Origin: an uncultured Candidatus Peribacteria bacterium
GTDB taxonomy: Bacteria; Patescibacteriota; Gracilibacteria; Peribacterales; Peribacteraceae
Length of the DNA stretch: 37,059 nt
Direction: 5' to 3'
Assembly (NCBI GenBank): GCA_964388495.1
Contig: CAYMAT010000007.1
Coordinates: forward strand, 1 to 37,059
The notes beneath the pieces were generated by a model. That model made no database searches, was not told the DNA's origin, and saw only the letters and a program-made list of their open reading frames with translations. Made by a program: the position numbers and the translations under genes. This document shows, in pieces, positions 7,511 through 35,688 of the stretch (positions within the stretch are counted from its first letter, which is position 1; each line of letters begins with the position of its first letter).

Positions 7511-7537
7511 GTGCTCGCAAAAGGGAGTGAATTCCGG

Positions 7538-7543
7538 TATAAT
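7538..7543 (+). promoter_or_regulatory. -10 box (TATAAT) for the 7552 ORF
   Basis: TATAAT at 7538-7543, 8 nt upstream of ATG 7552. Confidence 0.45.
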
Positions 7544-7551
7544 GATCAGAA

Positions 7552-8119: not shown

Positions 8120-8138
8120 ACAGACTTATTATGTGCTC

Positions 8139-8933
8139 TTAGGAAGCTTTTTTACCGCTGAGAACAAAAAAAGGGAAAACCACCACCGCGTTCCACATGC
8201 GCTTCCAGCGGGACGGCTCCTGCGCAAACCTCCAGGCCCATTCCAATCCGATCTTTTGGAGGAATATCGGAGCTCTCTTTTTCTCCCCCGCCAGAAAATC
8301 AAACGTCCCCCCCACCCCCATCGCCACTTTCACACTGGGCATGTCCTGTAAGTGACGATTGATCCAGATATCCTGCTGGGGCGCTCCAAATGCCACCAAC
8401 AGAAGATGCGGCCGAATGTCATTGACGGCACTGAGGATTTTTTCAGCATCGCATTCCTTTGGGGATCCGGACATTGTCATGACAATATTGAGCTCCGGAT
8501 TCATAGTCCTGAGTGCAAGTGCCGCCTTTTCCGCCACCCCCGGCGCAGCACCCAGGAGAAAAACACGCACCCCGTCATGGAGCTGCCTGCAGAGAGCTTG
8601 GACCGTGTCCGCACCCGTCACGCGTTCCGGAAGCGCCTGCCCCGTGAGACGCGCCATCCATACCAAGCCCTGACTGTCCGGCAGATTGAGGTCCGCGGAC
8701 CGCAGTACGCGCGCGAACTCCGGGTTACGGACGGATTCCACCAGCATTTCCGCATTGGGCGTCATCACGTGCCTGCCCGCCGAAGCTTTAGCGTTGGCGG
8801 GGTTCTCCCCTTCTTTTACATCAAGCATCTCCATCAAGCGTGTCACCGCCTCCTGTTGCGTGAGGGAATCGACAGGGATGCCCAGTATGTGGGATCGGGA
8901 ATTCACGAAAAAAGCGTACCACGGCGCGGCCAA
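8139..8933 (-). CDS. tagA: WecB/TagA/CpsF-family glycosyltransferase (UDP-ManNAc: lipid-linked GlcNAc ManNAc-transferase-like)
   Basis: ILGIPVDSLTQQEAV...VMTPNAEMLV...ADLNLPDSQGLVW...VFLLGAAPGVAEKAA...LLVAFGAPQQDIWI...VAMGVGGTFDFLAG..RAP...GLEWAWR. The start is uncertain. The ORF track uses TTG 8933, and GTG 8906 is an alternative. Confidence 0.85.
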   Translation of the reverse strand: MAAPWYAFFVNSRSHILGIPVDSLTQQEAVTRLMEMLDVKEGENPANAKASAGRHVMTPNAEMLVESVRNPEFARVLRSADLNLPDSQGLVWMARLTGQALPERVTGADTVQALCRQLHDGVRVFLLGAAPGVAEKAALALRTMNPELNIVMTMSGSPKECDAEKILSAVNDIRPHLLLVAFGAPQQDIWINRHLQDMPSVKVAMGVGGTFDFLAGEKKRAPIFLQKIGLEWAWRFAQEPSRWKRMWNAVVVFPFFVLSGKKAS

Positions 8934-8954
8934 ACCCTGTATCGTTTGCGGGTC

Positions 8955-9677
8955 GTGAAAAAGACGCTTGCATTCATCGGCTTCTGCATTGTCCTTTCGG
9001 CTTGTACAAGCCTTAAAACAAATACGCCTTCCTCACCTGCAGCTTCCTCCGGCTCTTCGCTCTCGTCTCTCCCCCTCCCGCCCACGGTGGATGGTGCAGA
9101 AACGCAGACGGGGATTTTGGTGGAGAGCGAGGATGATACCTCCTCTGACGGGGAATTGCGGTCTTCCACGGGAGCCCTCTTGGAGAGCGCCGCAACGGAT
9201 GGCTCGCTGACACTGGGGAATACCGCAACGGTACTGACCGTCTATACCAATGCTTCCTGCTCGTACTGTCATGATTTCCTGACGCAGATGTTGCCCGCAC
9301 TGACGGATGAATTCGTTGCCCAGGGGAAACTGTCCGTTCGTTTCGTGACCGTTCCGCTCAAGAAGTACCCCAACTCCGCGCTGGAAGCCGGGGCTGTGTA
9401 CTGTGCAGCGCGCGAGGGAAAGGGTCTGGCAATGATGGAGGCGCTGCACGCACTCCCCACCCATGACCGCAAGAAACTGCTTTCCGCCGCCGCGGCGCTG
9501 AAGGCGTCATCCGCCTTTCCTGCATGCCTGGACAGCGCGGAAGGCAAGGCAGCCATTACCGCAGGGGAAAAGAGCAGCATCACGCTGCTCCCCACGTTTG
9601 TTTTGAACGGAAAGAGCATTACCGGGCTCCCCATGCCCGCGGATCTCCGGGGCTGGATACGCCAGGAAACGCGGTGA
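8955..9677 (+). CDS. DsbA-like thioredoxin-fold lipoprotein (thiol:disulfide oxidoreductase)
   Basis: I place the start at GTG 8955. The signal peptide has a lipobox (VKKTLAFIGFCIVLSAC), followed by a Ser/Pro-rich linker and a CxxC motif (CSYC) in a DsbA-like context. The ORF-track extension back to 8352 is antisense to tagA. Confidence 0.75.
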   Translation: MKKTLAFIGFCIVLSACTSLKTNTPSSPAASSGSSLSSLPLPPTVDGAETQTGILVESEDDTSSDGELRSSTGALLESAATDGSLTLGNTATVLTVYTNASCSYCHDFLTQMLPALTDEFVAQGKLSVRFVTVPLKKYPNSALEAGAVYCAAREGKGLAMMEALHALPTHDRKKLLSAAAALKASSAFPACLDSAEGKAAITAGEKSSITLLPTFVLNGKSITGLPMPADLRGWIRQETR

Positions 9678-9935
9678 TCAGCGGCTGATCCGGACGATTT
9701 TCTTCTTGGACGTGAAGCCGCTCACGAGCGTGACGGCGTTTTTGGGAACGCCGTGCATCTCCGCGATAAAGCGCAGAAGCTCCAGATTGGCGGCGTTGTC
9801 CTCCGGCGCAGCGGCTACGTCTATCTTGAGCGTGCCGTCCGCCATGGTGGATGCAATTTTCGTCTTCTGCGCATGGGGACGCGCACGGATATGGAGAATG
9901 GTATCCATCATCATTTGGTCATGTTTTTCCGCCAT
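9678..9935 (-). CDS. DUF167 (YggU-like) family protein
   Basis: ...[13 protein letters not shown]....[49 protein letters not shown] is typical of DUF167. An alternative start at ATG 9914 would form an ATGA overlap with the trmD stop. Confidence 0.75.
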
Positions 9936-10603
9936 TCTTCGATCTTCTTGTGGTGACCGGAGAGCAGCACGTCAGGGACGCGCATGCCGCGGAATTCCTC
10001 CGGGCGGGTGTAGTGCGGGTACTCGCGCTTGCGCTTGAGGCTCTTGCTGAAGCTCTCCTCGTGAGCGGACTCGTCTTTGCCCAACACACCGGGGATGTGC
10101 CGCACCACGGCATCGATCAATACCATCGCCGGTAATTCGCCGCCGGTGAGCACGTAGTCGCCAATGGATATCTCTTCGTCAATCCACCCGTCGATAACTC
10201 GCTGATCGACTCCTTCATAGTGCCCGCAGAGGAGGAGTAGGTGATCTTTTTTGGCCAGTTGCTCCACCTTTGTCTGCGTCAGGCGCTTACCCCTGGGAGA
10301 CAGATAGATTCTATGAACGCCACTTTTCTCTTTTCTCTTTTCTCTTTTTACAACGTCGCTCATTGCTGATCGCTCATTGCTGATCGCTTCTATCCCCTTC
10401 ACCAATACATCCGGGCGCATCACCATGCCCGCCCCGCCGCCGTAGGGGCTGTCGTCGATCTGCTTGTACTTGCCCTCCGCGTAATCGCGCAGATCATGGA
10501 GACCGATTTCAAAAAGCCCAGCATCTTGCGCACGCTTAAGGATGCTCTCGGTCATGGGACCGTTAAACATGGCCGGGAAGAGGGTGAGAACGTCGATACG
10601 CAT
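9911..10603 (-). CDS. trmD: tRNA (guanine37-N1)-methyltransferase
   Basis: [13 protein letters not shown]...[16 protein letters not shown]...YLSPRGK...[13 protein letters not shown]...[27 protein letters not shown]. It contains a repeat-encoded loop insertion at 10323-10390. Confidence 0.92.
10323..10343. repeat. 7-bp tandem repeat (cttttct x3, plus a partial fourth unit) inside trmD
   Basis: Read directly. It encodes the KREKRKEK stretch of a variable loop. Confidence 0.9.
10357..10390. repeat. 14-bp tandem repeat (cgctcattgctgat x2.4) inside trmD
   Basis: Read directly at 10357-10370 and 10371-10384, plus a partial unit. The 14-nt period shifts the frame between units, giving [11 protein letters not shown]. 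Confidence 0.9.
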
Positions 10604-10620
10604 GTCGTGATGTTTCTATA

Positions 10621-11520
10621 TTACACAATATCCGCGTAAAACTGACGGACATCCTGGATGGCTACCTCGTCTACCGCTTGCGTCTTTTTCCCCTTCCGCG
10701 GCTCCAGGCGGTCATAGAAGCTGGGGACGTCCTCGCGCTGGTACAGGATGCCGGTGGGGATCCGCTCATGGACATTCTGCGCCAGCTTGCGCGCAACGGA
10801 AATATTGCAGTGGGGATCATGTCCCTCGGCGTTGGCGTCGTAGCAACGCTGCAACAGGTACTCGTGCGTGGCGAAATGGTTGTACGTGGGACAAGCCTGC
10901 AGGACATCCACAAAGGCAAAACCGTGTTTCTGATGCTCGATGGCCGCCTTGAGCACTTTGGTGAGATGCGGGATGTTGCCGCTGAACGCGCGGGCCACAA
11001 AGGTGGGCTCCAGGGAGAAGATGAAATCCATGGAGTTGAGCGTGTGCTCCGGGATACCGTTGGGACTGCTGTTCATCGGCTGCTCCTGCCACGTGAGCGA
11101 GCTGGCCTGGCCGGTGGTGAGGCCGTAGTTGGCGTTGTTGTGGAGAACGAAGGTGATGGGGTAATTGCTGCGGATCCCGTGCACCAGGTGGCCCACGCCT
11201 TCCGAGAAACTGGCGCCGTCGCCGCCAAAGGCGATCACAGGCATGCGCGTGTTGGCGAGCTTTGCGCCGGCGGCAAGCGGGATGACGCGGCCGTGGAGCC
11301 CGTGGATGCGGTAACCCGCGATCTTGTCGCTGCCGTTGCCGTGGCAACCGATGTCGTAACACAGGCACACCTGCCACGGATGGAGATTGAGTTCCGTGAG
11401 CGCGCGCTTGGTAGCGGTCCAGATGCCGTAGTCGCCGCAGCCGTCGCACCATGAGCACTGTGTACCGCAGTAGTATTCGTGGATATTTGCCGAGCCGCTG
11501 GTGTGCAAGGGGATACCCAT
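10621..11520 (-). CDS. 2-oxoacid:ferredoxin/flavodoxin oxidoreductase, beta (TPP-binding) subunit
   Basis: CSWCDGCGDYGI..., GGDGASFSEG (TPP GDG motif), VLHNNANYGLTTGQ. The ATG lies 3 nt after the alpha-subunit stop. Confidence 0.9.
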   Translation of the reverse strand: MGIPLHTSGSANIHEYYCGTQCSWCDGCGDYGIWTATKRALTELNLHPWQVCLCYDIGCHGNGSDKIAGYRIHGLHGRVIPLAAGAKLANTRMPVIAFGGDGASFSEGVGHLVHGIRSNYPITFVLHNNANYGLTTGQASSLTWQEQPMNSSPNGIPEHTLNSMDFIFSLEPTFVARAFSGNIPHLTKVLKAAIEHQKHGFAFVDVLQACPTYNHFATHEYLLQRCYDANAEGHDPHCNISVARKLAQNVHERIPTGILYQREDVPSFYDRLEPRKGKKTQAVDEVAIQDVRQFYADIV

Positions 11521-11523
11521 AAA

Positions 11524-11551
11524 TTATTGCTGATTGCTGATTGCTAACCGC
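11524..11551. repeat. Degenerate 7-bp tandem repeat (ttattgc tgattgc tgattgc taaccgc) at the 3' end of the OFOR alpha gene
   Basis: Read directly. It covers the last 7 codons (LAISNQQ) plus the stop. It is related to the trmD 14-mer, sharing ATTGCTGAT. Confidence 0.7.
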
Positions 11552-13311
11552 TGACGCAGTTCATCGGCGAAGAAAGGACGGCCGTCGTACTTGAGGATTT
11601 TTTGTGCGATGTCCACGCCCGTTTCCATCCGGATCATCATGCCCAGTTGGGCCTGCTTGTTGCATTCCACGATAACCGACTTTTTGGCTTTCTTGAGCAA
11701 TTTCTCTAACCTCTCAGTCTTGAGGGGCCAGAGGTAAGTGTAATGGAGATAACCAATCTTCTGCCCCCCTGCCCCCTTGCCCTCCTGCCCTTTTAGGGCA
11801 TCCAGAATCACACCCTTGTTGCTGCCCCAGGAGACGATGAGCATGTTCAGCGACGGATTGTCTTTGACGATTTTCCCGTTCACATACAGGTCCGGTTCCG
11901 GCAGCGCGGCCTTGAGCGCCTCCCCTTTGCGCATGCGCTTCTCCATTTGCTCCTGCGCGTTCTGCGCCGTCTCGTTCACGTTGCCCGCGGCGTCATGCTC
12001 GTCGCTCTGCGCGCAGTACGTGGCGGCCTCCGCTCCCGGCAGCCAGCGCGGGGAGATTCCGTCCTTGGCGGAGGGATCAAAGCGGTCGGTGCTGCGGAGC
12101 TTGGCGAGTTTCTGGGGATCAGTGACGAGTTTCCCGCGGCGGATCTTCGCCTTCTTCTGGTCAAACGGCTTCTGCGTAAAGAGCGCCTCCGCCGTCTGCT
12201 TGTCCGTCATGACAATGACGGGAATCTGGTATTCCTCAGCGATATTGAACGCCTGGGGCATGAGGTCGAAGCTGTCCTGTGACTCACTGACGGAGAGCAC
12301 GCAGCGCGGGAATTCCCCGTGTGCGGAACCCACGGCCAGCAGCAGGTCACCCTGCGCGGTCCACGTAGGGAGGCCGGTGGCGGGGCCGGGGCGCTGCGCG
12401 AGCACGAAGACGGACGGGTTCTCGATGATGCCGTTCATGCTGACGGTCTCCGTCATGAGATCGAATCCTCCCCCCGATGTCCCCGTTGCCGCACGCGTGC
12501 CCATGTACATGGCTCCGCTCATCATCTGCGCGGCGGTGATCTCGTCCTCCGCCTGCTTGATCACCATGCCAGTCTTGTTCTGGATCTCCGCTACGTAACT
12601 GAGGAGAGGAGAAGAAGGCGTCATGGGATACCCCACGTACATGCGACAACCGCCGTGCACCAAGCCCAGACCCATGGCCTGGCTGCCCGTGATGAGGAGA
12701 TGGTTCTTCCATTCGGGATTGGCTTTGGGAAGCGACAAACTTAACTCCTTCCGGTGTCCTGCCGCAAACGCCATACCCTCGTCGATACACTGATGGTTTG
12801 CCTGTACCACGGCATCGCCCTTGTAGCTGAACTGTTCGGTGGCCAGGTCTTTGAGCGCCTCAGCGGGAAGACCCAGGAACGACCACACGATGGACGTGAC
12901 CAGCATGTTACCCATGATGGGTCGCGCCTTCATTTTCTTCAGGATCTCCTCGATGGGCAGGTACAGCACGCGCACGCCGCGGCTGTCCAGGTCCCTCTGG
13001 ATTTTGGGATCGAATTTCCACTGCGGCGTCTGGTGCAGGATCACGCCGCCGTCGCGCACCTCATGGATGTTTTTCTCCAGACCGTGATGGTTGAAGTTCA
13101 CCAGGAGATGCACCCGGGACTCCGTGCTCTCCACATAATCGGCACTCACGTCCAGCTGATAACTGCTGTGCCCCCCCTTGATGAGCGAGTTGTATTCACG
13201 GTAACCAAAGACGCAGTACCCCGTGCGCTTGAGACCTTTGGCCAGCACCTCCCCCACGGAGTTGACCCCCTGCCCCTGCGCGCCGGTGATTTTGAGGGCG
13301 ATGCGCGTCAT
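11524..13311 (-). CDS. 2-oxoacid:ferredoxin/flavodoxin oxidoreductase, fused gamma-alpha subunit
   Basis: The N-terminal gamma domain reads IALKITGAQGQGVNSVGEVLAKGL...GGHSSYQL. An alpha domain follows: GYPMTPSSPLL....EDEITAAQMMSGA...GTSGGGFDLM. I prefer ATG 13311 because it overlaps the flavodoxin stop as ATGA. ATG 13344 is the alternative. Confidence 0.88.
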   Translation of the reverse strand: MTRIALKITGAQGQGVNSVGEVLAKGLKRTGYCVFGYREYNSLIKGGHSSYQLDVSADYVESTESRVHLLVNFNHHGLEKNIHEVRDGGVILHQTPQWKFDPKIQRDLDSRGVRVLYLPIEEILKKMKARPIMGNMLVTSIVWSFLGLPAEALKDLATEQFSYKGDAVVQANHQCIDEGMAFAAGHRKELSLSLPKANPEWKNHLLITGSQAMGLGLVHGGCRMYVGYPMTPSSPLLSYVAEIQNKTGMVIKQAEDEITAAQMMSGAMYMGTRAATGTSGGGFDLMTETVSMNGIIENPSVFVLAQRPGPATGLPTWTAQGDLLLAVGSAHGEFPRCVLSVSESQDSFDLMPQAFNIAEEYQIPVIVMTDKQTAEALFTQKPFDQKKAKIRRGKLVTDPQKLAKLRSTDRFDPSAKDGISPRWLPGAEAATYCAQSDEHDAAGNVNETAQNAQEQMEKRMRKGEALKAALPEPDLYVNGKIVKDNPSLNMLIVSWGSNKGVILDALKGQEGKGAGGQKIGYLHYTYLWPLKTERLEKLLKKAKKSVIVECNKQAQLGMMIRMETGVDIAQKILKYDGRPFFADELRQRLAISNQQ

Positions 13312-13781
13312 GCGTTGAGGAATGTTGCCAGTTTTTGCGTCCATTTGGCGATCTTTTCCTCCTGTCCGTAGGGTTCGTCAATGACGGTGAGCGCATCCAC
13401 AGCCACTTTCCCACCATGGGTGACGATATACGAACGGAGATATTCACCCGCGCGCGCGGTGTAGAAATAGCGGTGGTCACCCAGCGCGATGATGGAACAC
13501 GGCCTTCCCCCAAGATCCACCGTCTTTGCCGATCCGTTGAGCAGCGCATACATGTACGGATGCAACTGGCCCTCCACTCCGCCGGTGTTCCATGTTCCGG
13601 AAGCCAGGACCAATGTCTGGGCCTTAGCGAGATCTTCCGGGACGGCCTCTTCTGCACGCACCACGCGCGCGTGGATTTCCGGCAACAAGGTGCGCAGGCA
13701 CTCCACGGCATGATGGACCACCCATTCGGTATGGCCGCTCCCCGATGCATAGACGAAAGTCACGGACTGCACGGCTCCCAT
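13308..13781 (-). CDS. Flavodoxin (short-chain type)
   Basis: VTFVYASGSGHTE (FMN phosphate loop), LVLASGTWNTGGVEG, IALGDHRYFYTARAGEYL. It is the first gene of the OFOR operon. Confidence 0.8.
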   Translation of the reverse strand: MGAVQSVTFVYASGSGHTEWVVHHAVECLRTLLPEIHARVVRAEEAVPEDLAKAQTLVLASGTWNTGGVEGQLHPYMYALLNGSAKTVDLGGRPCSIIALGDHRYFYTARAGEYLRSYIVTHGGKVAVDALTVIDEPYGQEEKIAKWTQKLATFLNA

Positions 13782-13903
13782 TGTAGATCACCGCGCGCCG
13801 CGGCTCATTGACAAAAAACACCTTTCGTCCGCCATACGCGTAGCAACGGAATCACCCACGGTCTTTTGCGCTTGCACAAGGTCAAAAAGAGATATGCCGC
13901 ACA

Positions 13904-13932
13904 TTGAAAAAATATCCAAAAAACGGTATACT
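13904..13932 (+). promoter_or_regulatory. Sigma70-like promoter (TTGAAA-17 nt-TATACT) for MBOAT gene 1
   Basis: TTGAAA at 13904-13909 and TATACT at 13927-13932. ATG 13943 is 10 nt downstream, with no SD. Confidence 0.55.
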
Positions 13933-13942
13933 GTCCGGATAC

Positions 13943-15334
13943 ATGAACTTCACGAGTTTCGGTTATCTTTGGCTGATCGCGGCGTTTACACCCGTGTACT
14001 GGATGGCCGCAAAAAGGGTGCGGCTGCGGAACCTGCTCCTGGTGCTGGTCAGTTATTTTATCTACGGGTTTCTGAATCCGTGGTACTGCCTCCTGCTCTT
14101 CTGCAGTTCGCTCACCGCGCATATCTGCGGGCAGTCTGTGCAGAACCCGGAGAGGAAAGGCCGCGCAATTATTGTGGCGGTGTCCGTTGCGGTGAACATC
14201 GGCATGCTGGCCTTCTTCAAGTACGAAGGGTTTTTTGCGACGCAGGTTGCTGCAGCGCTCACATCCGTGGGGATTGGCGTGACGGAAGCGGGTGCAAAAC
14301 TGATCATGCCCATCGGCATATCGTTCTATACGCTTCAGGCCGTGGGATTCACCGTGGACGCCTACCGCGCAAAGATACGCGTGGGTGAACTGCTGGAGAC
14401 CATGGCGTACCTGTCGTTCTTCCCCAAGCTCATCGCTGGCCCGTTGGAGCCGGCGGAAACTCTCCTGCCCCAGCTGCAGCAACCCAAGGATTTCCAGGTA
14501 TCGCATCTGGGCGAAGGAACGGAGCTGATGCTGTACGGACTGTTCAAAAAGCTGGTGGTTGCGGAGAACATCCGTCCGTACATCGACCAGATATTCCTGC
14601 TCAAAAACCCGTCAGCCACGCTGCTTGCCGTGGGGGCCGCGGGTTTCACCGTCCAGATTCTTGCGGATTTCTCCGGATACACGGACATCGCCCGCGGAAG
14701 CGCGCGCCTCCTGGGCTTCACGCTCATGGAGAATTTCCGCCTGCCGTACCTTGCCGTCTCCCCGTCCGATTTCTGGCGGCGTTGGCACATTTCGCTCTCC
14801 CAGTGGTTCAGGGATTACGTCTACATCCCGCTGGGGGGATCGGAATGGCAATCGCGGACGATGACGTGCATCGCGCTCATGACCACCATGATGATCAGCG
14901 GCTTGTGGCACGGAGTCACGGGTAATTTTTTGCTGTGGGGGCTGTACCACGGTCTGCTGCTCTGCGCATATACCATGCTGGGAATGGGCGGCTCATGGAG
15001 TCCGCGCACCAGGCTTGGGCGCGCGGCGGCATGGCTGACGATGACAATCTTCACGGTCTTCGGCTGGCTGCTCTTCCGCAGTCCCGGGACGCCCTGGTTT
15101 GTACATGTCATGGCAAACCTCACGCCCGGATTGACGCAATCGCAATCCGCTGTGGCCCTGGTGTGGCTGGGCATGTACGCGCTGTACGTCCTGCCGTGGG
15201 TCTGCGCGTGGACACTGAAGACGCGCTGGGGACAGCACCCCGCCGCACGCGCACTCAGTAATGCCATTGTTGCACTCAGCATCGTCTATCTGTCCATTGA
15301 GGTACCCCTCAACTTCGTTTACTACCAGTTCTGA
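13943..15334 (+). CDS. MBOAT-family membrane O-acyltransferase (AlgI/DltB/PatA-like), copy 1
   Basis: MNFTSFGYLWL..., ISFYTLQAVGFTVDAYR, FFPKLIAGP, DFWRRWHISLSQWFRDYVYIPLGGS, and GLWHG, which contains the conserved MBOAT His. I chose the start by homology with copy 2 (MQFTSLHYLAFL). Confidence 0.85.
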   Translation: MNFTSFGYLWLIAAFTPVYWMAAKRVRLRNLLLVLVSYFIYGFLNPWYCLLLFCSSLTAHICGQSVQNPERKGRAIIVAVSVAVNIGMLAFFKYEGFFATQVAAALTSVGIGVTEAGAKLIMPIGISFYTLQAVGFTVDAYRAKIRVGELLETMAYLSFFPKLIAGPLEPAETLLPQLQQPKDFQVSHLGEGTELMLYGLFKKLVVAENIRPYIDQIFLLKNPSATLLAVGAAGFTVQILADFSGYTDIARGSARLLGFTLMENFRLPYLAVSPSDFWRRWHISLSQWFRDYVYIPLGGSEWQSRTMTCIALMTTMMISGLWHGVTGNFLLWGLYHGLLLCAYTMLGMGGSWSPRTRLGRAAAWLTMTIFTVFGWLLFRSPGTPWFVHVMANLTPGLTQSQSAVALVWLGMYALYVLPWVCAWTLKTRWGQHPAARALSNAIVALSIVYLSIEVPLNFVYYQF

Positions 15335-15336
15335 AC

Positions 15337-16347
15337 ATGGAACCCCTGGAGACATCCGCCGCCCCACCGGCCCCCGCACCCGCATTCGCGCGTCATGCCG
15401 TGACCGTCCTGCTGCATGTCCTCTTCATCGCCGGCGGAATGGGGGCGATGACCGCATTGGGCAACCTGGCACCGGACCCCGACCACGTCTTACGGGAAAG
15501 CCAGGAGAAGTACGCCACCCAGCACTACGACGCGGTGATTGTGGGGAATGCGCTGGCATTCAACCAGATCGACACCGCACTTCTTTCCTCCGCCACCGGC
15601 ATGAGCGTGGGGAGGTTGACCAAAGGCGATTCGGAAATCCCGCTGTGGTACATGGCCGCACGCAATTTGCTCGGCAGCATGCGCATGCCGCCGCGCATGG
15701 CATTGATCGTCTTCAATGACTTTGAACTCACGGACCCCTCCCGCTATTCGCCGGGCTACCTGCTCTCGGACGTGCAGTCACTGCGTGAAAAGGACGATCC
15801 CGTGGCCGATGCAAGGGTGCTGAAGCCGGCTATGGGCCAACTCCAGTACCTGTTGTACCAAAATTTCCGCAGCTACCGGCTCAAGACCGCGGGCCACCGG
15901 TGGCTGGAACGCACCGTGCAGAATGCGGTTGCGGCATCGCTCTTCCTCCCCAAGGACAGCGTGCAGCGGATGGTGGAGAAAATTATTCCGGAAACGGAGA
16001 CACCCATTCCCTTTGAACCCACGGACGTGCGCAAGCCGGAGGAGAACATCGCCGGTTCGTTTCTGCCGCCGCTGCTGGATGAACTGAAACGGCAGGGCAT
16101 CCGTCCGGTTCTGGTCCGCGCGCGGACGCGGCGCTACACGGAACGGGCGTCCAATGCCAGCACCGTCAAGTACATGGACGCCCTGCGCGCGTACGTACAA
16201 TCACGCGGCGGGGTGGTTTTGGACTATGCGGAGGACCCGCGCATCACCCGCGATCATTTTGCGGACAGCCTGCATTTGAACCTCCTGGGACAGAAGACCT
16301 TCACGGAAATCCTCGCGCAGGACATCTCTTCCCTCCCGGCCCAATGA
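15337..16347 (+). CDS. Membrane-anchored SGNH-like accessory protein of the MBOAT system (AlgJ/PatB/DltD-like role), copy 1
   Basis: The start lies 2 nt after the MBOAT stop (TGAacATG). It has an N-terminal TM helix. It is clearly paralogous to 23071..24087 (YDAVIVGNALAF / PLWYMAARNLLGS / FND / DSLHLN..G). Confidence 0.7.
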   Translation: MEPLETSAAPPAPAPAFARHAVTVLLHVLFIAGGMGAMTALGNLAPDPDHVLRESQEKYATQHYDAVIVGNALAFNQIDTALLSSATGMSVGRLTKGDSEIPLWYMAARNLLGSMRMPPRMALIVFNDFELTDPSRYSPGYLLSDVQSLREKDDPVADARVLKPAMGQLQYLLYQNFRSYRLKTAGHRWLERTVQNAVAASLFLPKDSVQRMVEKIIPETETPIPFEPTDVRKPEENIAGSFLPPLLDELKRQGIRPVLVRARTRRYTERASNASTVKYMDALRAYVQSRGGVVLDYAEDPRITRDHFADSLHLNLLGQKTFTEILAQDISSLPAQ

Positions 16348-19683: not shown

Positions 19684-19710
19684 CCATAGGACTTCCTTAT
19701 AGTGCCGGGG

Positions 19711-21342
19711 ATGACCAGAAAGGTAGCCATCATCGCAGGTGCGGGGCCGGCAGGTTTAACTGCAGCGTACGAACTCCTCGTCCGAACGGATATTCAGCCC
19801 ATCGTCTGCGAGGAAACGGGGATCATCGGCGGCATCGCCCAGACCTTCAATTACAAGGACAACCGCATCGATATAGGCGGTCACCGTTTTTTCAGCAAGA
19901 GCGAGCGCGTGATGAAGTGGTGGTTCAATATCCTGCCCCTGCAGGGCGCTCCTTCCGCGGACACGGCAGAAAAAAACCACGAGATCGATTACGCCGCGGA
20001 GGCGATCGTGAAGTTCCTGTGCCCGGAGTGCGCGGAAGGACGGCCGGAAAAACGGACCGCACCAGACCCTGAAAAAGAGGATGAGGTGATGCTGCAGCGC
20101 CCGCGCCTCTCCCGCATCTTCTACAAGCGGCACTTTTTCCCCTATCCCATTGGCATCACGCTCTCCGTGGCGCGCAAGCTGGGCCTAGGGAACACCTTCT
20201 TGATAGGACTCAGCTACATCAAGGCCCAACTGTTTCCCATCAAACCCGAGCAATACCTGGATGCCTTCTTCACCAACCGTTTCGGATACCGGCTGTACAA
20301 GACCTTCTTTGAGAAATACACGGAGAAGGTGTGGGGTATCCCCTGCAGCCAGATCCGCGCGGACTGGGGGGCGCAGCGCGTGAAGGGCCTCTCGCTCAAG
20401 CGCGCGGTGATGCACGCGGTGAAAGACCTGCTGAGCAGCGATTTTAAGAAGGCGCAGGAAGAACGCGAGACCAGCCTGATCACGCGTTTTTACTATCCCA
20501 AATTCGGCCCGGGCCAGATGTGGGAAACGGTGGCCAGGCAGGTCCAGCAGTGCGGAGGCGAGGTGCACATGAAGACGCGCGTGGTGGCTGTAAAAGTGAG
20601 CAGCGGAAAGGTTACGGCCGTGACGCTGGAGAACGCAGACACAGGCTCGCGCGAGGAAGTCGCCTGTGATTACTTCTTCTCCACCATGCCCATCAAGCAC
20701 CTGATCGGCATGATCAGCCCCCGGCCGGAACCCAAAGTGGTGGAGGTTGCGGAGGGGCTGCAATACCGCGATTTTTTGACGGTCGGCCTGCTGCTGAAGA
20801 AGCTCCATGTGCTGGAAAAAGGGAATGGCGCGCAGACGAGCGTGCCCGATAACTGGATTTACGTGCAGGAGGGCGACGTGCGCGTGGGACGCATCCAAAT
20901 CTTCAACAACTGGAGCCCGTACATGGTAAAAGACTGGAAGAACACCGTGTGGATTGGCCTGGAATATTTTGTGAACGAGGGCGGTGACCTGTGGATCAAG
21001 CAGGACAAGGAGATGATCGATCTGGGCGTGAGCGAGATGGAAAAGATCGGCTTTGTGAAAAAGGACGACGTGCTGGACGCGTGCGTGCTGCGCATGCCCA
21101 AGGCTTACCCCTCATACTGGGGCAGCTACGAGCAGCTGCACGTGGTGCGCGATTACGTGAACACGGTGGAGAACATGTTCCTGGTAGGGCGCAACGGCAT
21201 GCACCGCTACAACAACCAGGACCACAGCATGCTCACGGCAATGCTGGCGGTGGACAACATCGCGGAAGGCAGGACCGACAAATCCAACCTGTGGGACGTG
21301 AACCTGGACATGGTCTACCACGAGACAAAAAAAGGAGGCTGA
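19711..21342 (+). CDS. NAD(P)/FAD-dependent oxidoreductase (amine-oxidase / UDP-galactopyranose-mutase-like fold)
   Basis: [19 protein letters not shown] is a dinucleotide-binding motif, and [11 protein letters not shown] follows. I prefer ATG 19711 over the track's GTG 19702. TATAGT at 19698-19703 sits 7 nt upstream of it. Confidence 0.8.
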
Positions 21343-21440: not shown

Positions 21441-21468
21441 TTGACTTCACAGAGACTGTCCGTAAAAT
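21441..21468 (+). promoter_or_regulatory. Sigma70-like promoter (TTGACT-16 nt-TAAAAT) for the 21475 ORF
   Basis: TTGACT at 21441-21446 and TAAAAT at 21463-21468. GTG 21475 is 6 nt downstream, so the transcript is predicted to be leaderless. Confidence 0.55.
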
Positions 21469-21474
21469 TCCCTG

Positions 21475-23067
21475 GTGATACTCACGGAGGACACCGCCGA
21501 AAACCTTGCGCAAGATGCGGGCATCATGGCGCGCACGCATGCCAACGACCCCCCAAATTGGGACAAGATAATAAAAATTGTTTCTGCGGAACCCGCAGGA
21601 TTTGGAAGCAACAGAATGTTCCGAAAAAAGCTCATCCAGCTCCTTAGTCGGACAACACATCCGCTGGATGCCAGCATTAAAACCTTCAATGACGACATGC
21701 TGATCATCTCCCGTTACAATATATACGAGCAGCAGATTCTCGGGGATGAGGAAACCAAAAAAACAGCTGGCCAACTGTATATGGAACAGGAGCGTCATTC
21801 GCGGGAAATGGGTGAAAAACTGATGGAACATGCACCCAAATTCACGGAATGGGTCCGTGCTCAGGCAGACGCGTTGGCGGAACTGGTCCGGGAAAACAAT
21901 GCATGGAAAAACGGCACATTGCAGGAAAAAATGGATGTTCTGACGCAAGCCCTGTCTTGCATCAATATGTACGCCGCTGCTTGGAGCAGATCTTTCAATA
22001 CACGTCCGGGGTTTTCTACTGAAATAAGCTCTGTGGGGCAATTGACACAATCTGCCCTGCTCTCGCTGGTACAGCGGGTCCTCTTTACCCTGAAACCCTC
22101 CGACGATATTTCTGCCGCCTTGCAGAACATGCCTGAATGGCAATACAAAAAACTGTACACAGCCCCCGCGGATAAGAGGTTTCCAATATCGTATTTGGGC
22201 CCTAAAACGATTTCTCTGGCAAAAATACTGGGGTCGGGATTGGCGAGAATGAAAAAACTGCACGGCATACCCGAAACAGCCGAGGATGCCATTGGCTATG
22301 CCCCTCTGCCTCCCGTGCAAAACGACGTGCGCATGACCATCCTGGGAACCAAGATGAATCTTTTATACATCCAGATCCCTTTGGGAGGCGGAACGTTCCC
22401 CGTGGAGCAAATCATGGGAGAAAACCTAGAGGATGATCAGGAATTTTTTGCCGCCTACCGGGAGAAAACGGATACATGGTTTTTTGAAAGCATCACGGAG
22501 TATGCGGGGATGCGCGATTTTCTATCCACTGGAACGGAACAGTCGCTGAAAACCCTTCTCTATTGGAGCAGGCAAAAGGTGGATCGCATCCTGAAAGACA
22601 ATCCATTGGTTCACAAAAACCTGGATCAGATATCGAAATTCCATATCGAGATTGATCAAAACAACGAATATACCCTCTTTTGCGATCCTACCACCCAGGA
22701 AATTCTGGATGGACTCCAAATAACCGGTCCACAAACAAAAGAAGAGGAAAAGCAGTCCATTACCGCCTCCGCCCCTCCTCTCCACCAACGCTGCAAGGAA
22801 ATCTTCAGCACCCGTGACATTACCTCACTCCAATGGAACCGGGTCAGCTGGTTGCTGAGACACGCAGGTCTTGTGGAAACGCATGAAGGCAAAGGAAGTC
22901 ATATTAAATTCACGAATCCAGAAAACGAGAGTTTTTGCACGGTGTCCTATGCCTTCCACCACTCATCCACCGTGGATATCCCCTATGGAACCATCGCACG
23001 CTGGCTCTCTCAGGCAAATTTGACCGACGCACAAATAGGTCTGATAGAGGGCTTCCTGGATCAATGA
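21475..23067 (+). CDS. Hypothetical protein (530 aa) with a C-terminal HicA-like domain
   Basis: Long AT-richer ORF. The last ~70 aa read WLLRHAGLVETHEGKGSHIKFTNPENESFCTVSYAFHHSSTVDIPYGTIARWLSQANL. This fits the HicA (YcfA) toxin pattern, including the GSH histidine. The start could instead be ATG 21526. Confidence 0.7.
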   Translation: MILTEDTAENLAQDAGIMARTHANDPPNWDKIIKIVSAEPAGFGSNRMFRKKLIQLLSRTTHPLDASIKTFNDDMLIISRYNIYEQQILGDEETKKTAGQLYMEQERHSREMGEKLMEHAPKFTEWVRAQADALAELVRENNAWKNGTLQEKMDVLTQALSCINMYAAAWSRSFNTRPGFSTEISSVGQLTQSALLSLVQRVLFTLKPSDDISAALQNMPEWQYKKLYTAPADKRFPISYLGPKTISLAKILGSGLARMKKLHGIPETAEDAIGYAPLPPVQNDVRMTILGTKMNLLYIQIPLGGGTFPVEQIMGENLEDDQEFFAAYREKTDTWFFESITEYAGMRDFLSTGTEQSLKTLLYWSRQKVDRILKDNPLVHKNLDQISKFHIEIDQNNEYTLFCDPTTQEILDGLQITGPQTKEEEKQSITASAPPLHQRCKEIFSTRDITSLQWNRVSWLLRHAGLVETHEGKGSHIKFTNPENESFCTVSYAFHHSSTVDIPYGTIARWLSQANLTDAQIGLIEGFLDQ

Positions 23068-23070: not shown

Positions 23071-24087
23071 TCACCGGATGAGCGGCCTGAGCGCTTCCGT
23101 GAGAATGCCCGTGAAGACCTTTCTGCCCTCCGGATTCATGTGGTCGTCTTTGCTGCCGCGGTAATACTGCGGCTGCAGGCGCTCCTCGTTGGTGAAATCG
23201 ATCAATACGCCGTCCCTTTGCTCAATGTATGTGCGCAGATCGGCCATGTAGCGGACTGTCTTCTTGCTCTGCGGTTTTCCGTCGGCATATTTCTTCTCAC
23301 GCACGCGGATGAAGATCAGCTGCATGTCGTATTTGGCTGCCTCGTCAAAGAGCAGCGGAAGGTACGAATCGCCTATGGCGATATCGAAGTTTTTCTGCGC
23401 GGTGGGCCCGGGGGTATTGGACGCATTGCGGCGGGATACGAATTTCACGATATGGTTACCGATGTCTTTTTCACTCCTGCGCGTGAACAGCGAGGCGAAG
23501 GCGCGGGATTCATCGTATATTTCCGTGCGGAGATCCTCTTTGATCGCATAGAGCGGGATATTCCGCTGCAGCGTTGCGCGGATCCATCCCTTCACCGGGA
23601 CAAGCGTTTTATCATAGAGAACGTCATCGTCCGGCTGAGCGATGGAAAGCAGGTCCGCCTCCTGGTATCCCACGGCACCGTTGGTGGTGGTGGTCAGGTC
23701 CGCATCGCGGAAGAAAACGAGAACCTGCCGTGGCGGCTCCTGGAGACGCGAACCGATGAGATTTTTAAGGGCCAGATACCAGTACGGGGTGCGCGACCCC
23801 CCGGTGGAAGTATCCACAATGCTGACCCCCAAATCCTTGCCAAGCGTGTCAAAATCCACGTTCACGTACGCCATGGAATTGCCCAAAACCCCCACATCGT
23901 ACTTTTCGGTTTCATGCTGTTTTCGCCAATCATCCAGGAGCGATGGACTTGCGCCCGCGCGGACGGCGACGGCGTTGGCCCCCGTTATGATCAATACAGC
24001 CAGCGCGACCACGTAGAGCCCAAAGAGCGCCAGCTTCCAGAAGCGGACGGGGGCGATAGCCTGCGGTTGAACGTTCTGGTCGGTCAT
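23071..24087 (-). CDS. Membrane-anchored SGNH-like accessory protein of the MBOAT system, copy 2
   Basis: ATG 24087 lies 1 nt after the MBOAT-2 stop (TGAcATG). It has an N-terminal TM helix. It is paralogous to 15337..16347 (YDVGVLGNSMAY / PYWYLALKNLIGS / FRD / DDHMNPEG). Confidence 0.7.
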   Translation of the reverse strand: MTDQNVQPQAIAPVRFWKLALFGLYVVALAVLIITGANAVAVRAGASPSLLDDWRKQHETEKYDVGVLGNSMAYVNVDFDTLGKDLGVSIVDTSTGGSRTPYWYLALKNLIGSRLQEPPRQVLVFFRDADLTTTTNGAVGYQEADLLSIAQPDDDVLYDKTLVPVKGWIRATLQRNIPLYAIKEDLRTEIYDESRAFASLFTRRSEKDIGNHIVKFVSRRNASNTPGPTAQKNFDIAIGDSYLPLLFDEAAKYDMQLIFIRVREKKYADGKPQSKKTVRYMADLRTYIEQRDGVLIDFTNEERLQPQYYRGSKDDHMNPEGRKVFTGILTEALRPLIR

Positions 24088-24088
24088 G

Positions 24089-25471
24089 TCAGAACTGGAA
24101 GTAGACGAAGTCCCCCGCCGCCTCCTGCCCCAGAATGAGGATGCAGGCAATGAGGCACGCATACATGACACCGCGCCCCAGCGGGTGCCGCACAAAGCGG
24201 TCCATGACCACAGGCACAGTCCAGAGAATCACAAAAAAAGCGGCGAAGCTGAGCCATACGGCCATCAGGGAAATCCCCCAGGATTCGCGCTCCCCTGTGG
24301 AACTGCGGACGCTCTGCAGCAGCCACGTGAGACTGGATGCCTTGAAGAGGATCCATCCCAACACAGTCCAAAAGAACATCACCGTGCGAGCGGTCCACTT
24401 GATGACGGCATTGCGGGGAACCCAGTGGCCGTCCATCTTGAGCAACTGGTAGACGAAAAGCAGGATGCCGTAATACAGGCCCCACAGCAGAAAGTTGACG
24501 GTGGCGCCGTGCCACAGGCCGCTGGCGCCCATGGTGACCAGCGTGGTGAAGAGGAGCTTGAGCTTACTGTCCGTACGGGAGCCGCCCAAAGGAATATAGA
24601 CATATGTAGTGAACCACTTGGAGAGCGAAATGTGCCAGCGCCTCCAGAAATCGGAAGGAGTCAGGGCAAGATACGGGTAATTGAAGTTCTCCATCAGATT
24701 GATGCCCAGCAGCCTGGCGCTTCCGCGCGCCAGGTCCGTATACCCGGAGAAGTCCGCAAGGATCTGGACGGCAAAGCAGAGGCCCCCCGTGAACAGAACG
24801 GTGAGGGGGACGGGGTTCCCCAGGAAAATGCGGTCCACATACGGAGAAATGTTGTCGGCAATGACGAGTTTTTTGAAAAACCCGAAAATCATGAGGGACA
24901 ATCCCCCGCTCAGGTTGGCCCAGTCCCACGCATGACGCTCGGCAATCTGCGGAAAAAACGTGCCGGCCTTTTCAAAGGGGCCGCTGATCAGCTTGGGGAA
25001 GAATGCCAGGAACACACTCACCTCCAGCCATCCCTGGCGCGGCACCTCGCCCTTGTAGGCGTCTGCCACCAAGCCCACCGCCTGCAGGGAGTAGAACGAA
25101 AGACCCAGCGGCAGAATGACATTGAGCAGGCTCTGAACCACCGGACTTGCCGTTTTGGGATTGATGAAATCCCCGATGAAATACCCCCAGTATTTGAAGA
25201 GCACCAGGATCCCGATATTGAAGACGATGCAGGCGACGAGAGGTAGGCGACTCCGCTGCTCTTTTTCCTTGGACCACAGGGCGTGCAAGCAAACATACGT
25301 GACCGCCGTGCTGATGAGCAGGAGCACGCAATACCACAGGCTCGCCCAGCCATAAAACAGGTAACTTCCCACCAGCAACTGGACGTTGCGGACCTTCTGG
25401 GAATCCGTCATCCAGTACACGCAACAGAAGACCGCAAGGAAGGCCAGATAGTGCAGGCTGGTGAACTGCAT
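24089..25471 (-). CDS. MBOAT-family membrane O-acyltransferase (AlgI/DltB/PatA-like), copy 2
   Basis: MQFTSLHYLAFL..., LSFYSLQAVGLVADAYK, FFPKLISGP, DFWRRWHISLSKWFTTYVYIPLGGS, GLWHG. The start is ATG 25471. The upstream 126 codons in the ORF track are junk that overlaps the divergent promoter. Confidence 0.85.
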   Translation of the reverse strand: MQFTSLHYLAFLAVFCCVYWMTDSQKVRNVQLLVGSYLFYGWASLWYCVLLLISTAVTYVCLHALWSKEKEQRSRLPLVACIVFNIGILVLFKYWGYFIGDFINPKTASPVVQSLLNVILPLGLSFYSLQAVGLVADAYKGEVPRQGWLEVSVFLAFFPKLISGPFEKAGTFFPQIAERHAWDWANLSGGLSLMIFGFFKKLVIADNISPYVDRIFLGNPVPLTVLFTGGLCFAVQILADFSGYTDLARGSARLLGINLMENFNYPYLALTPSDFWRRWHISLSKWFTTYVYIPLGGSRTDSKLKLLFTTLVTMGASGLWHGATVNFLLWGLYYGILLFVYQLLKMDGHWVPRNAVIKWTARTVMFFWTVLGWILFKASSLTWLLQSVRSSTGERESWGISLMAVWLSFAAFFVILWTVPVVMDRFVRHPLGRGVMYACLIACILILGQEAAGDFVYFQF

Positions 25472-25501
25472 AAATCTATTTATTTTAACATAAAAATACG
25501 C

Positions 25502-25507
25502 TATAAT
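25502..25507 (+). promoter_or_regulatory. -10 box (TATAAT) for the beta-helix gene
   Basis: TATAAT at 25502-25507, 6 nt upstream of ATG 25514, in an A/T-rich divergent intergenic region. Confidence 0.5.
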
Positions 25508-25513
25508 CAATGG

Positions 25514-27010
25514 ATGCTTTGGAACAGCAGAATCAGAAACGGCATGGGTATAACGCTGTCTGTAGCCGCCTTGCTGTGCCTGATTGCGTACCAGTTTCCC
25601 GTCCGTTTTTGGATGCAGGAAAAGTACGTGTCGCTCCACCAGACGTTTTTGCCGCATGCCAACGTCAAGACCGTGAAACTGAAAAGGGCCAGGCTGCTGT
25701 CCACCCTCGCAAAGGAATATTACGTGAAGAGCGGGGATCTGGTTTCCGCCAACCCCCTGCTCCGGCCCAGTGACGTGATCCCGGAAAAACTGTCGGTGCT
25801 CATCCCCGCCGACGCACTCGCCTCCGCCCCCGTCCCCACGGACCTGCAAAACAGACCCCGAGCACAGATCGCGTTCAGCACCAATGAAAACGCCATTGTC
25901 ATCAGCGGCGAGGGAGCTGTAGCCCGTCTTGCGGACATCGCACGCGTCATGAATGACCCCGCAATTCTTGAGCAGCGGGACAATGCCTGGCTGCTCTCAC
26001 GCAACATTTTGCTCATAGGCGGGGCGATCTTGGATCTGGAGGAAAAAAGCTCATGGCTGAGGCTGCGGAGCGATGCCGACATAACCGTGAACATCACGGC
26101 GGAAGACGGAAACATCGTCATGCGGGGGATGCGGGTGTCTTCCTGGGATCCATCCACGCAAAGCCCCGACACCAACACGGATGACGGAAGGGCGTACATC
26201 ACCCAGATGGCGGGGAGAATGGATATCATGGACAGCGAGATTTTCTCGCTGGGCTCCGAACACGGCCCCGCCGACAAATCGGGCGCCATCTACGGCCTTT
26301 CATGGAGAACGACAAACGCGGAGCATGACGACATGCTGGTGGCGGGCAGTATTGCGCGCTCCTCGGTTCACGATAATTATTACGGGCTTTACTCGTACGG
26401 TTCCACGGCGCTTCGCATAGTCAAAAACGAGTTTTACAGAAACATCCAGTACGGCATTGCGCCGCATGATGATTCGCGCTTTTCCGTCATCCAGAAAAAC
26501 TACGTTCACGACAACGGCAAGCACGGGATCATGCTGAGTAACGGCTGTAACGACAACCTTATGGAGGGGAACATCGTCGTCCACAACGGACTCAGCGGCA
26601 TCATGATCAGCAAGCTCTCCAAGAGGAACACAGCACGCTCCAATATTGCGGCGTTCAACGCGGCGGGGATCACCCTGAACGACAGGTCATCGGAAAACAC
26701 CCTGGATGCGAACGCGTCACTGGATAACAAAAACGGTATCGAGATCCGCAGAATGTCCAGCGCCAACGTGGTAAAGGCCAACGTGGTCCAACGCAACGTG
26801 AACGGAGTGGTCATCAACAGCAGATCCTATGACAACGATGTCTTCGGCAACCTGGTGGAACAAAACGGCACGGCGGTCTCGCTCAAGGAGACATCGGGAA
26901 ACTACCTGCACGACAACTTCACCTACGCGGGGAACCAGAAGAATGTCACGGCAGCGGCATCGGCAAAAGACAATGTGATCCGTTTCTTTGGGGATAACGG
27001 GGATTTCTGA
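25514..27010 (+). CDS. Right-handed parallel beta-helix protein, AlgG-like (polyuronate C5-epimerase / CASH-domain family), membrane-anchored or exported
   Basis: N-terminal hydrophobic segment GITLSVAALLCLIAY. Repeated ~22-aa units of the N-x-(V/I)-x-x-N type are present. YGIAPHDDSRFSVIQKNYVHDNGKHGIMLS resembles the AlgG YGFDPHDRS...HGIIIS region as I recall it from memory. Confidence 0.7.
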   Translation: MLWNSRIRNGMGITLSVAALLCLIAYQFPVRFWMQEKYVSLHQTFLPHANVKTVKLKRARLLSTLAKEYYVKSGDLVSANPLLRPSDVIPEKLSVLIPADALASAPVPTDLQNRPRAQIAFSTNENAIVISGEGAVARLADIARVMNDPAILEQRDNAWLLSRNILLIGGAILDLEEKSSWLRLRSDADITVNITAEDGNIVMRGMRVSSWDPSTQSPDTNTDDGRAYITQMAGRMDIMDSEIFSLGSEHGPADKSGAIYGLSWRTTNAEHDDMLVAGSIARSSVHDNYYGLYSYGSTALRIVKNEFYRNIQYGIAPHDDSRFSVIQKNYVHDNGKHGIMLSNGCNDNLMEGNIVVHNGLSGIMISKLSKRNTARSNIAAFNAAGITLNDRSSENTLDANASLDNKNGIEIRRMSSANVVKANVVQRNVNGVVINSRSYDNDVFGNLVEQNGTAVSLKETSGNYLHDNFTYAGNQKNVTAAASAKDNVIRFFGDNGDF

Positions 27011-34740: not shown

Positions 34741-35688
34741 ATGAAGAAAATCCTCGTCACCGGCTCCATGGCCTACGATGTCCTCCTTGGCTATGACGGG
34801 TCCTTTAAAGACGCCATCGGGAACGATACGGAGAAGCTCTCGGTCTCTTTCTTCAGCCCGCGCTACGCCCGGCACCACGGCGGGACGGGATCCAATATCT
34901 CGTGGAACTTGGCTTCCCTGGGCGGAAAACCCGTCCTGGTCACGGACATCGGATACGACGGAGGGGAATACCGGGATTTCCTCAAAGAGCGCGGCGCTGA
35001 TGTGCATCATGTGCGGCAGCATCAGGATCATGTGACGGCCACAGCGGTGATTGGCACGGACAACGCGGAGCGCCAGATCGCCTTTTTCCACCCCGGTGCG
35101 GACGCGCACGGCACGTGGCCGGACTTGAACGAGGACCGGGATGATTTTGCGTACGCCATAGTCTCGCCGCGGAATCCCCTGTTGGTGATGGAAGCGGTGC
35201 GCTGGTGCGGCACGTGGAAGGTTCCGCTGCTGTTTGATCCCGGCCAGATCATCATCGCCCTCTCCAAAGACGAATTGATCACCGGCATCAAGACCGCCAG
35301 GGGCGTCATCTGCAACAACTATGAGTGGGATCTTTTGAGCCAGAAGACGGGCATGAACGAGAAGGACGTGGTGAAGCACGCGGAGTACCTGATCATCACG
35401 CGCGGGGAGGCGGGAGTGACTATCATGGACCGCGGGGGCAAAAAGGATCTGCCTGCCTGCAAACCGGACCAAGTGGTGAATCCCACCGGCGCGGGTGATG
35501 CCCTGCGCGCGGGGCTCTTGTTCGGCCTCAGTAAAAGATGGGATCTCCACACCAGCGTACAATTGGGTGCCGCCGTCGCCTCCCTGGTTGTTGAGCAGGA
35601 GGGCACCCTTATCGCTGATATGGATATAGAGGAGATCGACGGACGTGTATATACAACGTACGGACAAAAGATGCCGCCTCTACGCTGA
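34741..35688 (+). CDS. PfkB-family carbohydrate/nucleoside kinase
   Basis: MKKILVTGSMAYDVLL..., HGGTGSNISWNLASLGG, NPTGAGDALRAG (PfkB signature 2). Confidence 0.85.
   Translation: MKKILVTGSMAYDVLLGYDGSFKDAIGNDTEKLSVSFFSPRYARHHGGTGSNISWNLASLGGKPVLVTDIGYDGGEYRDFLKERGADVHHVRQHQDHVTATAVIGTDNAERQIAFFHPGADAHGTWPDLNEDRDDFAYAIVSPRNPLLVMEAVRWCGTWKVPLLFDPGQIIIALSKDELITGIKTARGVICNNYEWDLLSQKTGMNEKDVVKHAEYLIITRGEAGVTIMDRGGKKDLPACKPDQVVNPTGAGDALRAGLLFGLSKRWDLHTSVQLGAAVASLVVEQEGTLIADMDIEEIDGRVYTTYGQKMPPLR

Follow-up and report, generated by a model that had tools for sequence, protein, structure and literature searches.

The 37,059-bp contig CAYMAT010000007.1 (GenBank assembly GCA_964388495.1) of an uncultured Candidatus Peribacteria bacterium was analysed over its whole length and is called the window below. 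It carries, on the forward strand, a complete open reading frame (ORF) for a 530-aa protein that had been singled out from the letters alone as an orphan ending in an mRNA interferase domain of the HicA type. Canonical HicA toxins are small, standalone, basic proteins of ~60-90 aa with a HicB antitoxin encoded alongside. The last ~95 residues of the 530-aa protein (aa ~436-530) are, as judged by sequence comparison, a genuine HicA homologue with its catalytic histidine motif intact. The family to which the protein belongs is small, rare, fast-evolving and restricted to Peribacteria; it has the same architecture throughout and is under purifying selection. With the balance about even, the protein is read here as a cytoplasmic single-chain HicA endoribonuclease that inhibits itself, with presumed regulation and presumed toxicity.

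The ORF and its C-terminal HicA domain

Thirty canonical Class 2 HicA sequences were taken from Table S1 of Gerdes (2024) and aligned as a comparison profile. The C-terminal profile of the family was aligned to it by hhalign with a probability of 97.8% (E 1.3e-12, 69 columns), and the GKGSH of the family fell on the canonical GSH. The Pfam model HicA_toxin (PF07927) matched residues 459-515 at E 2e-5 (25.1 bits) when the isolated C-terminus was searched, and matched the whole protein at 21.5 bits (E 2.6e-4). No precomputed Pfam domain is attached to the protein because 25.1 bits lie just under the gathering score of 27. PF07927 was found at E <= 0.01 in five of the 11 family members. Two PHROG families described as 'toxin' matched the 530-aa protein at E ~1e-4. 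With a hidden Markov model (HMM) of canonical HicA, the ORF was the sole match in the window (E 1.3e-5). The best two PDB sequence matches of the family profile were the Streptococcus pneumoniae HicA (5yrz, E 0.002) and a HicA-like protein of Thermus thermophilus (1whz, E 0.004). The HicA similarity of the C-terminus is far above chance in these profile searches. Both the Pfam search and the profile-profile comparison uphold the domain assignment of the original prediction. The peptide quoted for it is present at aa 456-516 (nt 22840-23022), but the start given for it (~22813) was about 27 nt too early.

The aligned stretch reads GGKGSHIK in 5yrz and EGKGSHIK in the window protein, so that the heptapeptide GKGSHIK is identical in the two. 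His476 aligns with His36 of the S. pneumoniae HicA, a residue essential for RNase activity (PMC6159526). It is invariant in all 11 family members; the histidine that had been noted as kept is therefore not lost in the homologues. Seven residues of the domain (G465, K473, G474, S475, H476, N481 and Q520) are invariant among 11 sequences with an overall identity of ~24%. In the 530-aa protein the domain is acidic (net charge -3, isoelectric point (pI) 5.9).

The structure was predicted with AlphaFold2 on the 11-sequence family alignment, which gave a mean predicted local distance difference test score (pLDDT) of 71.8 and a predicted template modelling score (pTM) of 0.57. Prediction from the single sequence was uninformative (pLDDT 40). 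The C-terminal part of the model has an alpha-beta-beta-beta-alpha order (helix 454-463, strands 467-469, 476-480 and 487-491, helix 504-513) with a pLDDT of 80-93. The best Foldseek match of the model in BFVD was an 86-aa phage 'Toxin' (probability 1.0, target-normalised TM-score 0.66, E 0.098), and no BFVD match reached E <= 0.001. With the whole protein as query, no HicA entry was among the top 50 PDB matches.

The ORF was borne out with the limits given in Table 1. Its GTG is the furthest-upstream in-frame start. Residues 1-17 were aligned with the N-termini of homologues (E5, A8 and L11; pattern ExxAxxIG), and the GTG was favoured over an internal ATG at 21526 because residues 5-12 align with these N-termini. 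No Shine-Dalgarno sequence is visible ahead of the GTG. The stretch had been described as beginning at 21441, which is the first promoter-like hexamer; the gene itself begins at 21475. The promoter proposed there exists as a sequence, but its match is no better than chance: two matches at 10 of 12 positions were observed in the region, against 1.9 expected in shuffled sequence. Since such matches are equally frequent in shuffles, the hexamers are no evidence in themselves. If the site were functional, the mRNA would be essentially leaderless with a GUG start.

Table 1. Positions in the window of the 530-aa ORF, its parts and two upstream features.
Feature	Position	Strand	Remarks
530-aa ORF, complete	21475..23067	+	GTG start, stop included; member of the Peribacteria-restricted family of 457-583-aa proteins
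Alpha-helical N-terminal region, aa 1-262	21475..22260	+	long helices (residues 5-262) in AlphaFold2 on the family alignment; no known homologue
Acidic middle beta/alpha region, aa 287-415	22333..22719	+	AlphaFold2; conserved motifs YAGLS..LLP.G and R..RIL..PLL
Disordered linker (predicted), aa 416-435	22720..22779	+	pLDDT < 50 at aa 417-432
HicA-like domain, aa 436-530	22780..23064	+	extra helix, alpha-beta-beta-beta-alpha, C-terminal helix with invariant Q520
GKGSH motif, aa 472-476	22888..22902	+	invariant across the family; His476 codon 22900-22902
Sigma-70-like hexamers TTGACT-16-TAAAAT	21441..21468	+	10/12 positions match; -10 hexamer ends 6 nt before the GTG
Flavin amine-oxidase-like oxidoreductase gene	19702-21342	+	upstream of the 530-aa ORF

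The N-terminal region and the Peribacteria family

When 1.84 billion representative proteins were scanned exhaustively by phmmer with the full-length query, 10 relatives (E 2e-14 to 2e-4), all of 457-583 aa and 17-30% identical to the query, and no protein outside this family were recovered. Word-indexed searches, either with the single sequence or with the family profile, returned only the query itself. The description as an orphan thus holds for word-indexed searches, but not for exhaustive HMMER searching, which finds 10 distant full-length relatives. The homology is end to end: pairwise BLAST gave 24.5% identity over 555 aa (E 2e-35) and 26.8% over 563 aa (E 4e-37). All long members with an organism label were in metagenome-assembled genomes (MAGs) of Candidatus Peribacteria or Peregrinibacteria. 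Loci from metagenomes carry no organism label, and in three of them (L007-L009) the copy shares 63-100% identity with that of locus L004. One Joint Genome Institute copy is annotated 'YcfA (HicA-like mRNA interferase family)'.

In total, ~18 sequences were counted among 15 billion proteins, in ~11 clusters at 50% identity. For comparison, the TrmD encoded in the window (9911-10603) has more than 120 clusters (90% level) among the matches listed, 68-87% identical and, where an organism was named, all from Candidatus Peribacteria, Peribacteraceae or Peregrinibacteria. The genomes of loci L003 and L004 have BipA proteins that are 73% identical, against 22% for their family proteins. The dN/dS ratio of three closer copies was 0.16-0.19 on the C-terminal 139-167 codons. 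From this low ratio and the divergence relative to BipA, it is concluded that the gene is kept by selection while diverging fast.

The ORF had been called AT-richer than its surroundings, and its composition agrees with this: its GC content is 0.493 and its GC content at third codon positions (GC3) is 0.56, against a GC3 of 0.70-0.81 in most neighbours. The family gene lies in low-GC islands in L002 and L004 and has a host-like composition in L001, L003 and L005. Nothing was found when the family profile was compared with viral contigs, or when the window protein was searched with tblastn against phage and plasmid collections. A sparse, fast-diverging and compositionally shifted family has a signature typical of conflict genes.

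Three other genes of unknown function on the contig are also AT-shifted, making four with the 530-aa ORF. A 765-aa ORF (5213-7510, +) has the lowest GC content of the contig (GC 0.447, GC3 0.457). Pfam and PADLOC gave no match for it and PHROG none of significance, and it forms a singleton cluster in the collection of 15 billion proteins. It was tried as a HicA-family relative and rejected (hhalign probability 0.2%). The ORFs at 62-1312 (+) and 35680-36387 (-) have no Pfam match and GC3 values of 0.59 and 0.52, against ~0.7-0.8 elsewhere.

The ~415 residues ahead of the HicA domain had been described as a large fusion with no recognisable motif, and this description stands. Full-length structure prediction followed by Foldseek, as had been proposed, gave no PDB fold match better than E 0.25 with the whole model. 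Matches such as 14-3-3 and STAT3 (E >= 0.25) are generic helical and were dismissed as meaningless. The N-terminal profile gave no match at E <= 10 among PDB sequences. The members have no Pfam family in common besides HicA, and the NCBIfam search of the 530-aa protein gave only noise. No Walker A motif was present in the protein. Outside the HicA domain, only G44, R50, L156 and one Ser are invariant in the 11 sequences, and no invariant set of acidic, His or Cys residues pointing to a second enzyme was seen in the family alignment. In the model, the middle region consists of a beta-rich part (287-337), a long helix (354-375), a hairpin (389-402) and a helix (405-415).

The net charge of aa 263-415 is -13 in the 530-aa protein and -6 to -16 in all 11 members. 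The following segment (aa 416-445) is 14-37 aa long across the family with a net charge of 0 to -8; it is acidic in most members and has a net charge of 0 (pI 6.8) in the 530-aa protein. The HicA domain is basic (pI 8.4-10.2) in eight of the 11 members and acidic in three, including the window protein. Canonical HicA and HicB have mean pI values of 10.3 and 5.2, respectively. The computed charge pattern of the family is thus like that of a toxin-antitoxin pair.

A likeness of the N-terminal part to HicB was looked for by sequence and rejected (hhalign probability 0.4%). The protein could nonetheless be a canonical HicA with an antitoxin that lies elsewhere in the genome or is of another kind than HicB, for instance with a HicB-like fold hidden in aa 287-415. 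This explanation, which overlaps with the self-inhibited RNase, is considered improbable. A degenerate HicB fold of the RNase-H-like type would be consistent with the predicted succession of elements in aa 310-415, namely three strands, one long helix, a pair of strands and a further helix, and the region is acidic as HicB is. The sole hhalign match, which is insignificant, puts helix 355-377 on the alpha-1 helix of HicB. The probability of that match counts against a hidden HicB, as do the empty search of PDB sequences with the N-terminal profile and the absence of any HicB or RNase-H-like structure from the Foldseek PDB matches of the whole model. If such a fold were present in aa 287-415, the protein would be a true fused HicB-HicA in the sense of Gerdes.

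In a second alternative, the protein is an exported effector resembling a polymorphic toxin, with an N-terminal delivery part and a C-terminal HicA warhead directed at competing or host cells. Such an effector is very unlikely. Candidate phyla radiation (CPR) bacteria are commonly attached to other cells, which was counted in its favour. The toxin module is C-terminal and follows a flexible linker, and HicA modules are documented at the C-terminus of polymorphic toxins (PMC9424270). Against export, the 530-aa protein has neither a signal peptide nor a transmembrane segment (maximum 19-residue hydropathy 0.94), and no RHS, BetaH or other trafficking domain was found. No conserved immunity gene lies downstream, and in the window a convergent gene abuts the stop codon. 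The conservation is also the reverse of that in polymorphic toxins, with a mean pairwise identity of 35.5% in the C-terminal HicA domain and ~22% elsewhere.

Genomic surroundings and the search for HicB

HMMs were built from 29 canonical HicB and 30 canonical HicA sequences and run on 1,786 stop-to-stop ORFs of at least 40 aa from the window and ten loci (L001-L010). For the genome of the 530-aa protein, the search spans the 37 kb of the contig. The HicB HMM had no match in the window, in L001-L005 or in L007-L009. As a positive control, it found a HicB ORF directly after a canonical hicA in both L006 and L010. The absence of a HicB partner, as first described, is therefore upheld by a search that detects HicB in the control loci. 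These two loci, a Vicinamibacterales MAG (L006, 2002-2600) and a metagenome contig (L010, 439-1168), carry canonical small hicA-hicB pairs whose HicAs have the motif GKGSHRK[YF]xNP, the same motif as in the long family. The fused domain may have evolved from this motif subfamily.

The flanks of the ORF are as originally described. The oxidoreductase gene listed in Table 1 ends upstream, with a gap of 132 nt. Downstream comes a convergent pair, made up of a gene for a 374-aa protein without Pfam match, whose end is 3 nt away from the stop codon of the ORF, and a gene for its MBOAT acyltransferase partner. The rest of the locus is devoted to envelope polysaccharide synthesis (GT2-GtrA glycosyltransferases, sugar epimerases/dehydratases, UDP-glucose dehydrogenase, a Wzy-like protein, WecG and a beta-helix protein). 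Scanning the window for Rfam families and for tRNAs gave no match. MBOAT acyltransferase genes occur twice in the window (13904-16347, +, and 23071-25849, -), each time paired with a gene for a ~340-370-aa partner without Pfam match, and the two pairs are paralogous. Identity is 44% between the MBOATs and 29% over 336 aa between the partners, which suggests two O-acylation modules in the polysaccharide locus. An ORF on the reverse strand (8139-8933), matching WecG/TagA, overlaps one on the forward strand (8352-9677) that matches Thioredoxin_4. The latter gene probably starts well downstream of its listed GTG, because the Thioredoxin_4 match is confined to the last ~150 residues.

A comparison of the neighbourhoods of homologues, which had been proposed as a check, showed that neighbours vary by locus and that no HicB lies beside the long members. 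The neighbours were hisF, hisIE and grpB in L004, bipA in L003 and gap in L005; in L002 they were ORFs of unknown function, a GNAT gene and a ResIII/SNF2 helicase. No neighbourhood was conserved across the loci; apart from the family gene, the one recurrent gene is bipA, which in L003 and in L004 lies loosely nearby, within 8 kb of it. In L002, a low-GC3 island (6966-15845; 0.30-0.38, against flanking values of 0.55-0.67) contains the homologue P0007 together with several unknown ORFs and the ResIII/SNF2-type helicase ORF (12830-14380). No other locus hints at a mobile or defence island. In L003, a co-oriented 552-aa ORF without Pfam match (6863-8521, +) ends 52 nt upstream of the homologue. 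It was tried as a family relative and found to be unrelated; it may or may not be an operon partner.

The abortive-infection or defence role first suggested for the gene was not supported. The 530-aa protein matched no model of PADLOC-DB v2 at E <= 1, most of the neighbours are housekeeping genes, and the searches of phage, plasmid and viral collections turned up no family member. A third alternative is a lineage-specific housekeeping or regulatory factor that binds or processes RNA. The HicA domain, which resembles domains that bind double-stranded RNA (dsRBDs), would then serve as an RNA-recognition or mild nuclease module and not as a toxin. This is an unlikely explanation, if less so than a hidden HicB. 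It fits the housekeeping and envelope neighbours (polysaccharide synthesis, his operon, bipA, gap), the repeated proximity of bipA, a GC content equal to that of the host genome in L001, L003 and L005, the purifying selection, and the absence from phage, plasmid and viral collections. The acidic HicA domain of three of the 11 members, the window protein among them, also fits. The very sparse distribution tells against it (~18 sequences, against more than 120 listed TrmD clusters), as do the extreme divergence relative to BipA, the lack of a conserved neighbourhood and the strict conservation of a toxin-type catalytic motif.

A proposed self-inhibited HicA endoribonuclease and known fused systems

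In the proposed self-inhibited endoribonuclease, the N-terminal part would take the antitoxin's role in cis, no trans antitoxin being present. The likeliest inhibitory element would be the acidic beta/alpha region together with the linker, directly ahead of the HicA domain. It would hold the RNase face closed until a signal is received. Such a signal might be a foreign or stress-related ligand that binds to the helices of the N-terminal region, or cleavage of the linker by a protease. The released HicA domain would then cleave cellular or invader RNA, leading to growth arrest. Cis-inhibition has been proposed for the monocistronic fused HicA proteins of Classes 11-13 (Gerdes 2024, mBio 15:e03293-23, PMC10865869). 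The idea of a cis-acting inhibitor or sensor in a single polypeptide, also put forward in the original prediction, is plausible and in agreement with the acidic stretch ahead of HicA; Gerdes (2024) had already put it forward.

Several observations weigh against this mechanism. The N-terminal region has no HicB sequence similarity (hhalign 0.4%) and no PDB fold match. The surroundings, with polysaccharide genes in the window and his genes, bipA and gap elsewhere, are unlike a defence island, and no PADLOC model matches the 530-aa protein. Its HicA domain is acidic (net -3, pI 5.9), as in two other members, where canonical HicA is basic, and its affinity for RNA may therefore be weak. The host-like composition in three genomes is as much in keeping with a resident gene as with a mobile gene. 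A further step, in which the ~415-residue N-terminal part is a new sensor or antitoxin fold that gates the HicA RNase in a CPR-specific single-gene switch for abortive infection or stress suicide, is possible and rather doubtful. The trigger of such a switch could be a phage or host-cell factor. The genomic context lends no support to a defence role as such.

The self-inhibition reading matches what was proposed for the monocistronic fused HicA Classes 11-13, and for Class 13 especially. Class 13 comprises monocistronic fused HicBA proteins of 340-440 aa with an alpha-helical N-terminus and a C-terminal HicA, exemplified by WP_067334119.1 (Gerdes 2024, PMC10865869). Both Class 13 and the Peribacteria family are monocistronic, with a mainly alpha-helical N-terminus, a C-terminal HicA and no separate HicB. 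For both, the predicted function is a self-regulated and possibly anti-phage one. They differ in length (340-440 aa, against 457-583 aa in the Peribacteria family), and the Peribacteria family adds a beta-rich acidic middle region and occurs in CPR Peribacteria only. No homology of the N-terminal part to Class 13 is apparent, since phmmer returned only the Peribacteria family; the comparison was made with the class description.

With canonical HicAB systems (E. coli HicAB, S. pneumoniae HicBA 5YRZ, Yersinia pestis HicA3B3), the protein shares the HicA fold and the GKGSH motif. In those systems, however, the toxin is a basic standalone protein of 60-90 aa, with an adjacent HicB that combines an RNase-H-like fold with a ribbon-helix-helix or helix-turn-helix domain. 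In the 530-aa protein HicA is a tail, the domain is acidic and no HicB is present, so that it has neither the small toxin nor the adjacent hicB of a canonical system.

CapRel-SJ46 and EzeT follow the same proposed logic of a toxin and a cis-acting inhibitor or sensor in one polypeptide. Cis-inhibition has been demonstrated for CapRel-SJ46, which is unrelated to HicA, and is discussed in relation to fused HicA by Gerdes (2024, PMC10865869). Neither protein has homology to the 530-aa protein: their toxin domains are a tRNA pyrophosphokinase and a UDP-N-acetylglucosamine (UNAG) kinase, respectively, and in CapRel the domain order is reversed relative to the 530-aa protein. Class 14 proteins, in which HicA is joined to an SMC (structural maintenance of chromosomes) protein, and polymorphic toxins tipped with HicA (RHS, BetaH S8-PTS) carry, as here, a C-terminal HicA on a large protein with long helices. 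The 530-aa protein differs from Class 14 in having no Walker A motif or SMC head, and no member of the family has an SMC Pfam match. It differs from the polymorphic toxins in having no RHS, BetaH, secretion signal or immunity gene. A 2024 review of HicAB does not mention fused forms, and experimental work on fused HicA was not found. The family is thus a rare, CPR-restricted form of an already catalogued fused HicA architecture and does not amount to an entirely new type of system.

The existing catalogue of fused single-gene HicA proteins is computational, and how HicA is silenced without HicB is a question that this family could address. As a test case it is compact: the catalytic motif is intact, an acidic region and a flexible linker lie directly upstream, and 11 divergent sequences are available for covariation. 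Because the Pfam gathering threshold misses the domain, such proteins stay 'hypothetical'. With this family, the sparsely documented conflict systems of CPR bacteria would gain a toxin-type module. If the reading as a switch is true, it would represent a single-gene device in the ultra-small Peribacteria, a group with few recognised defence systems.

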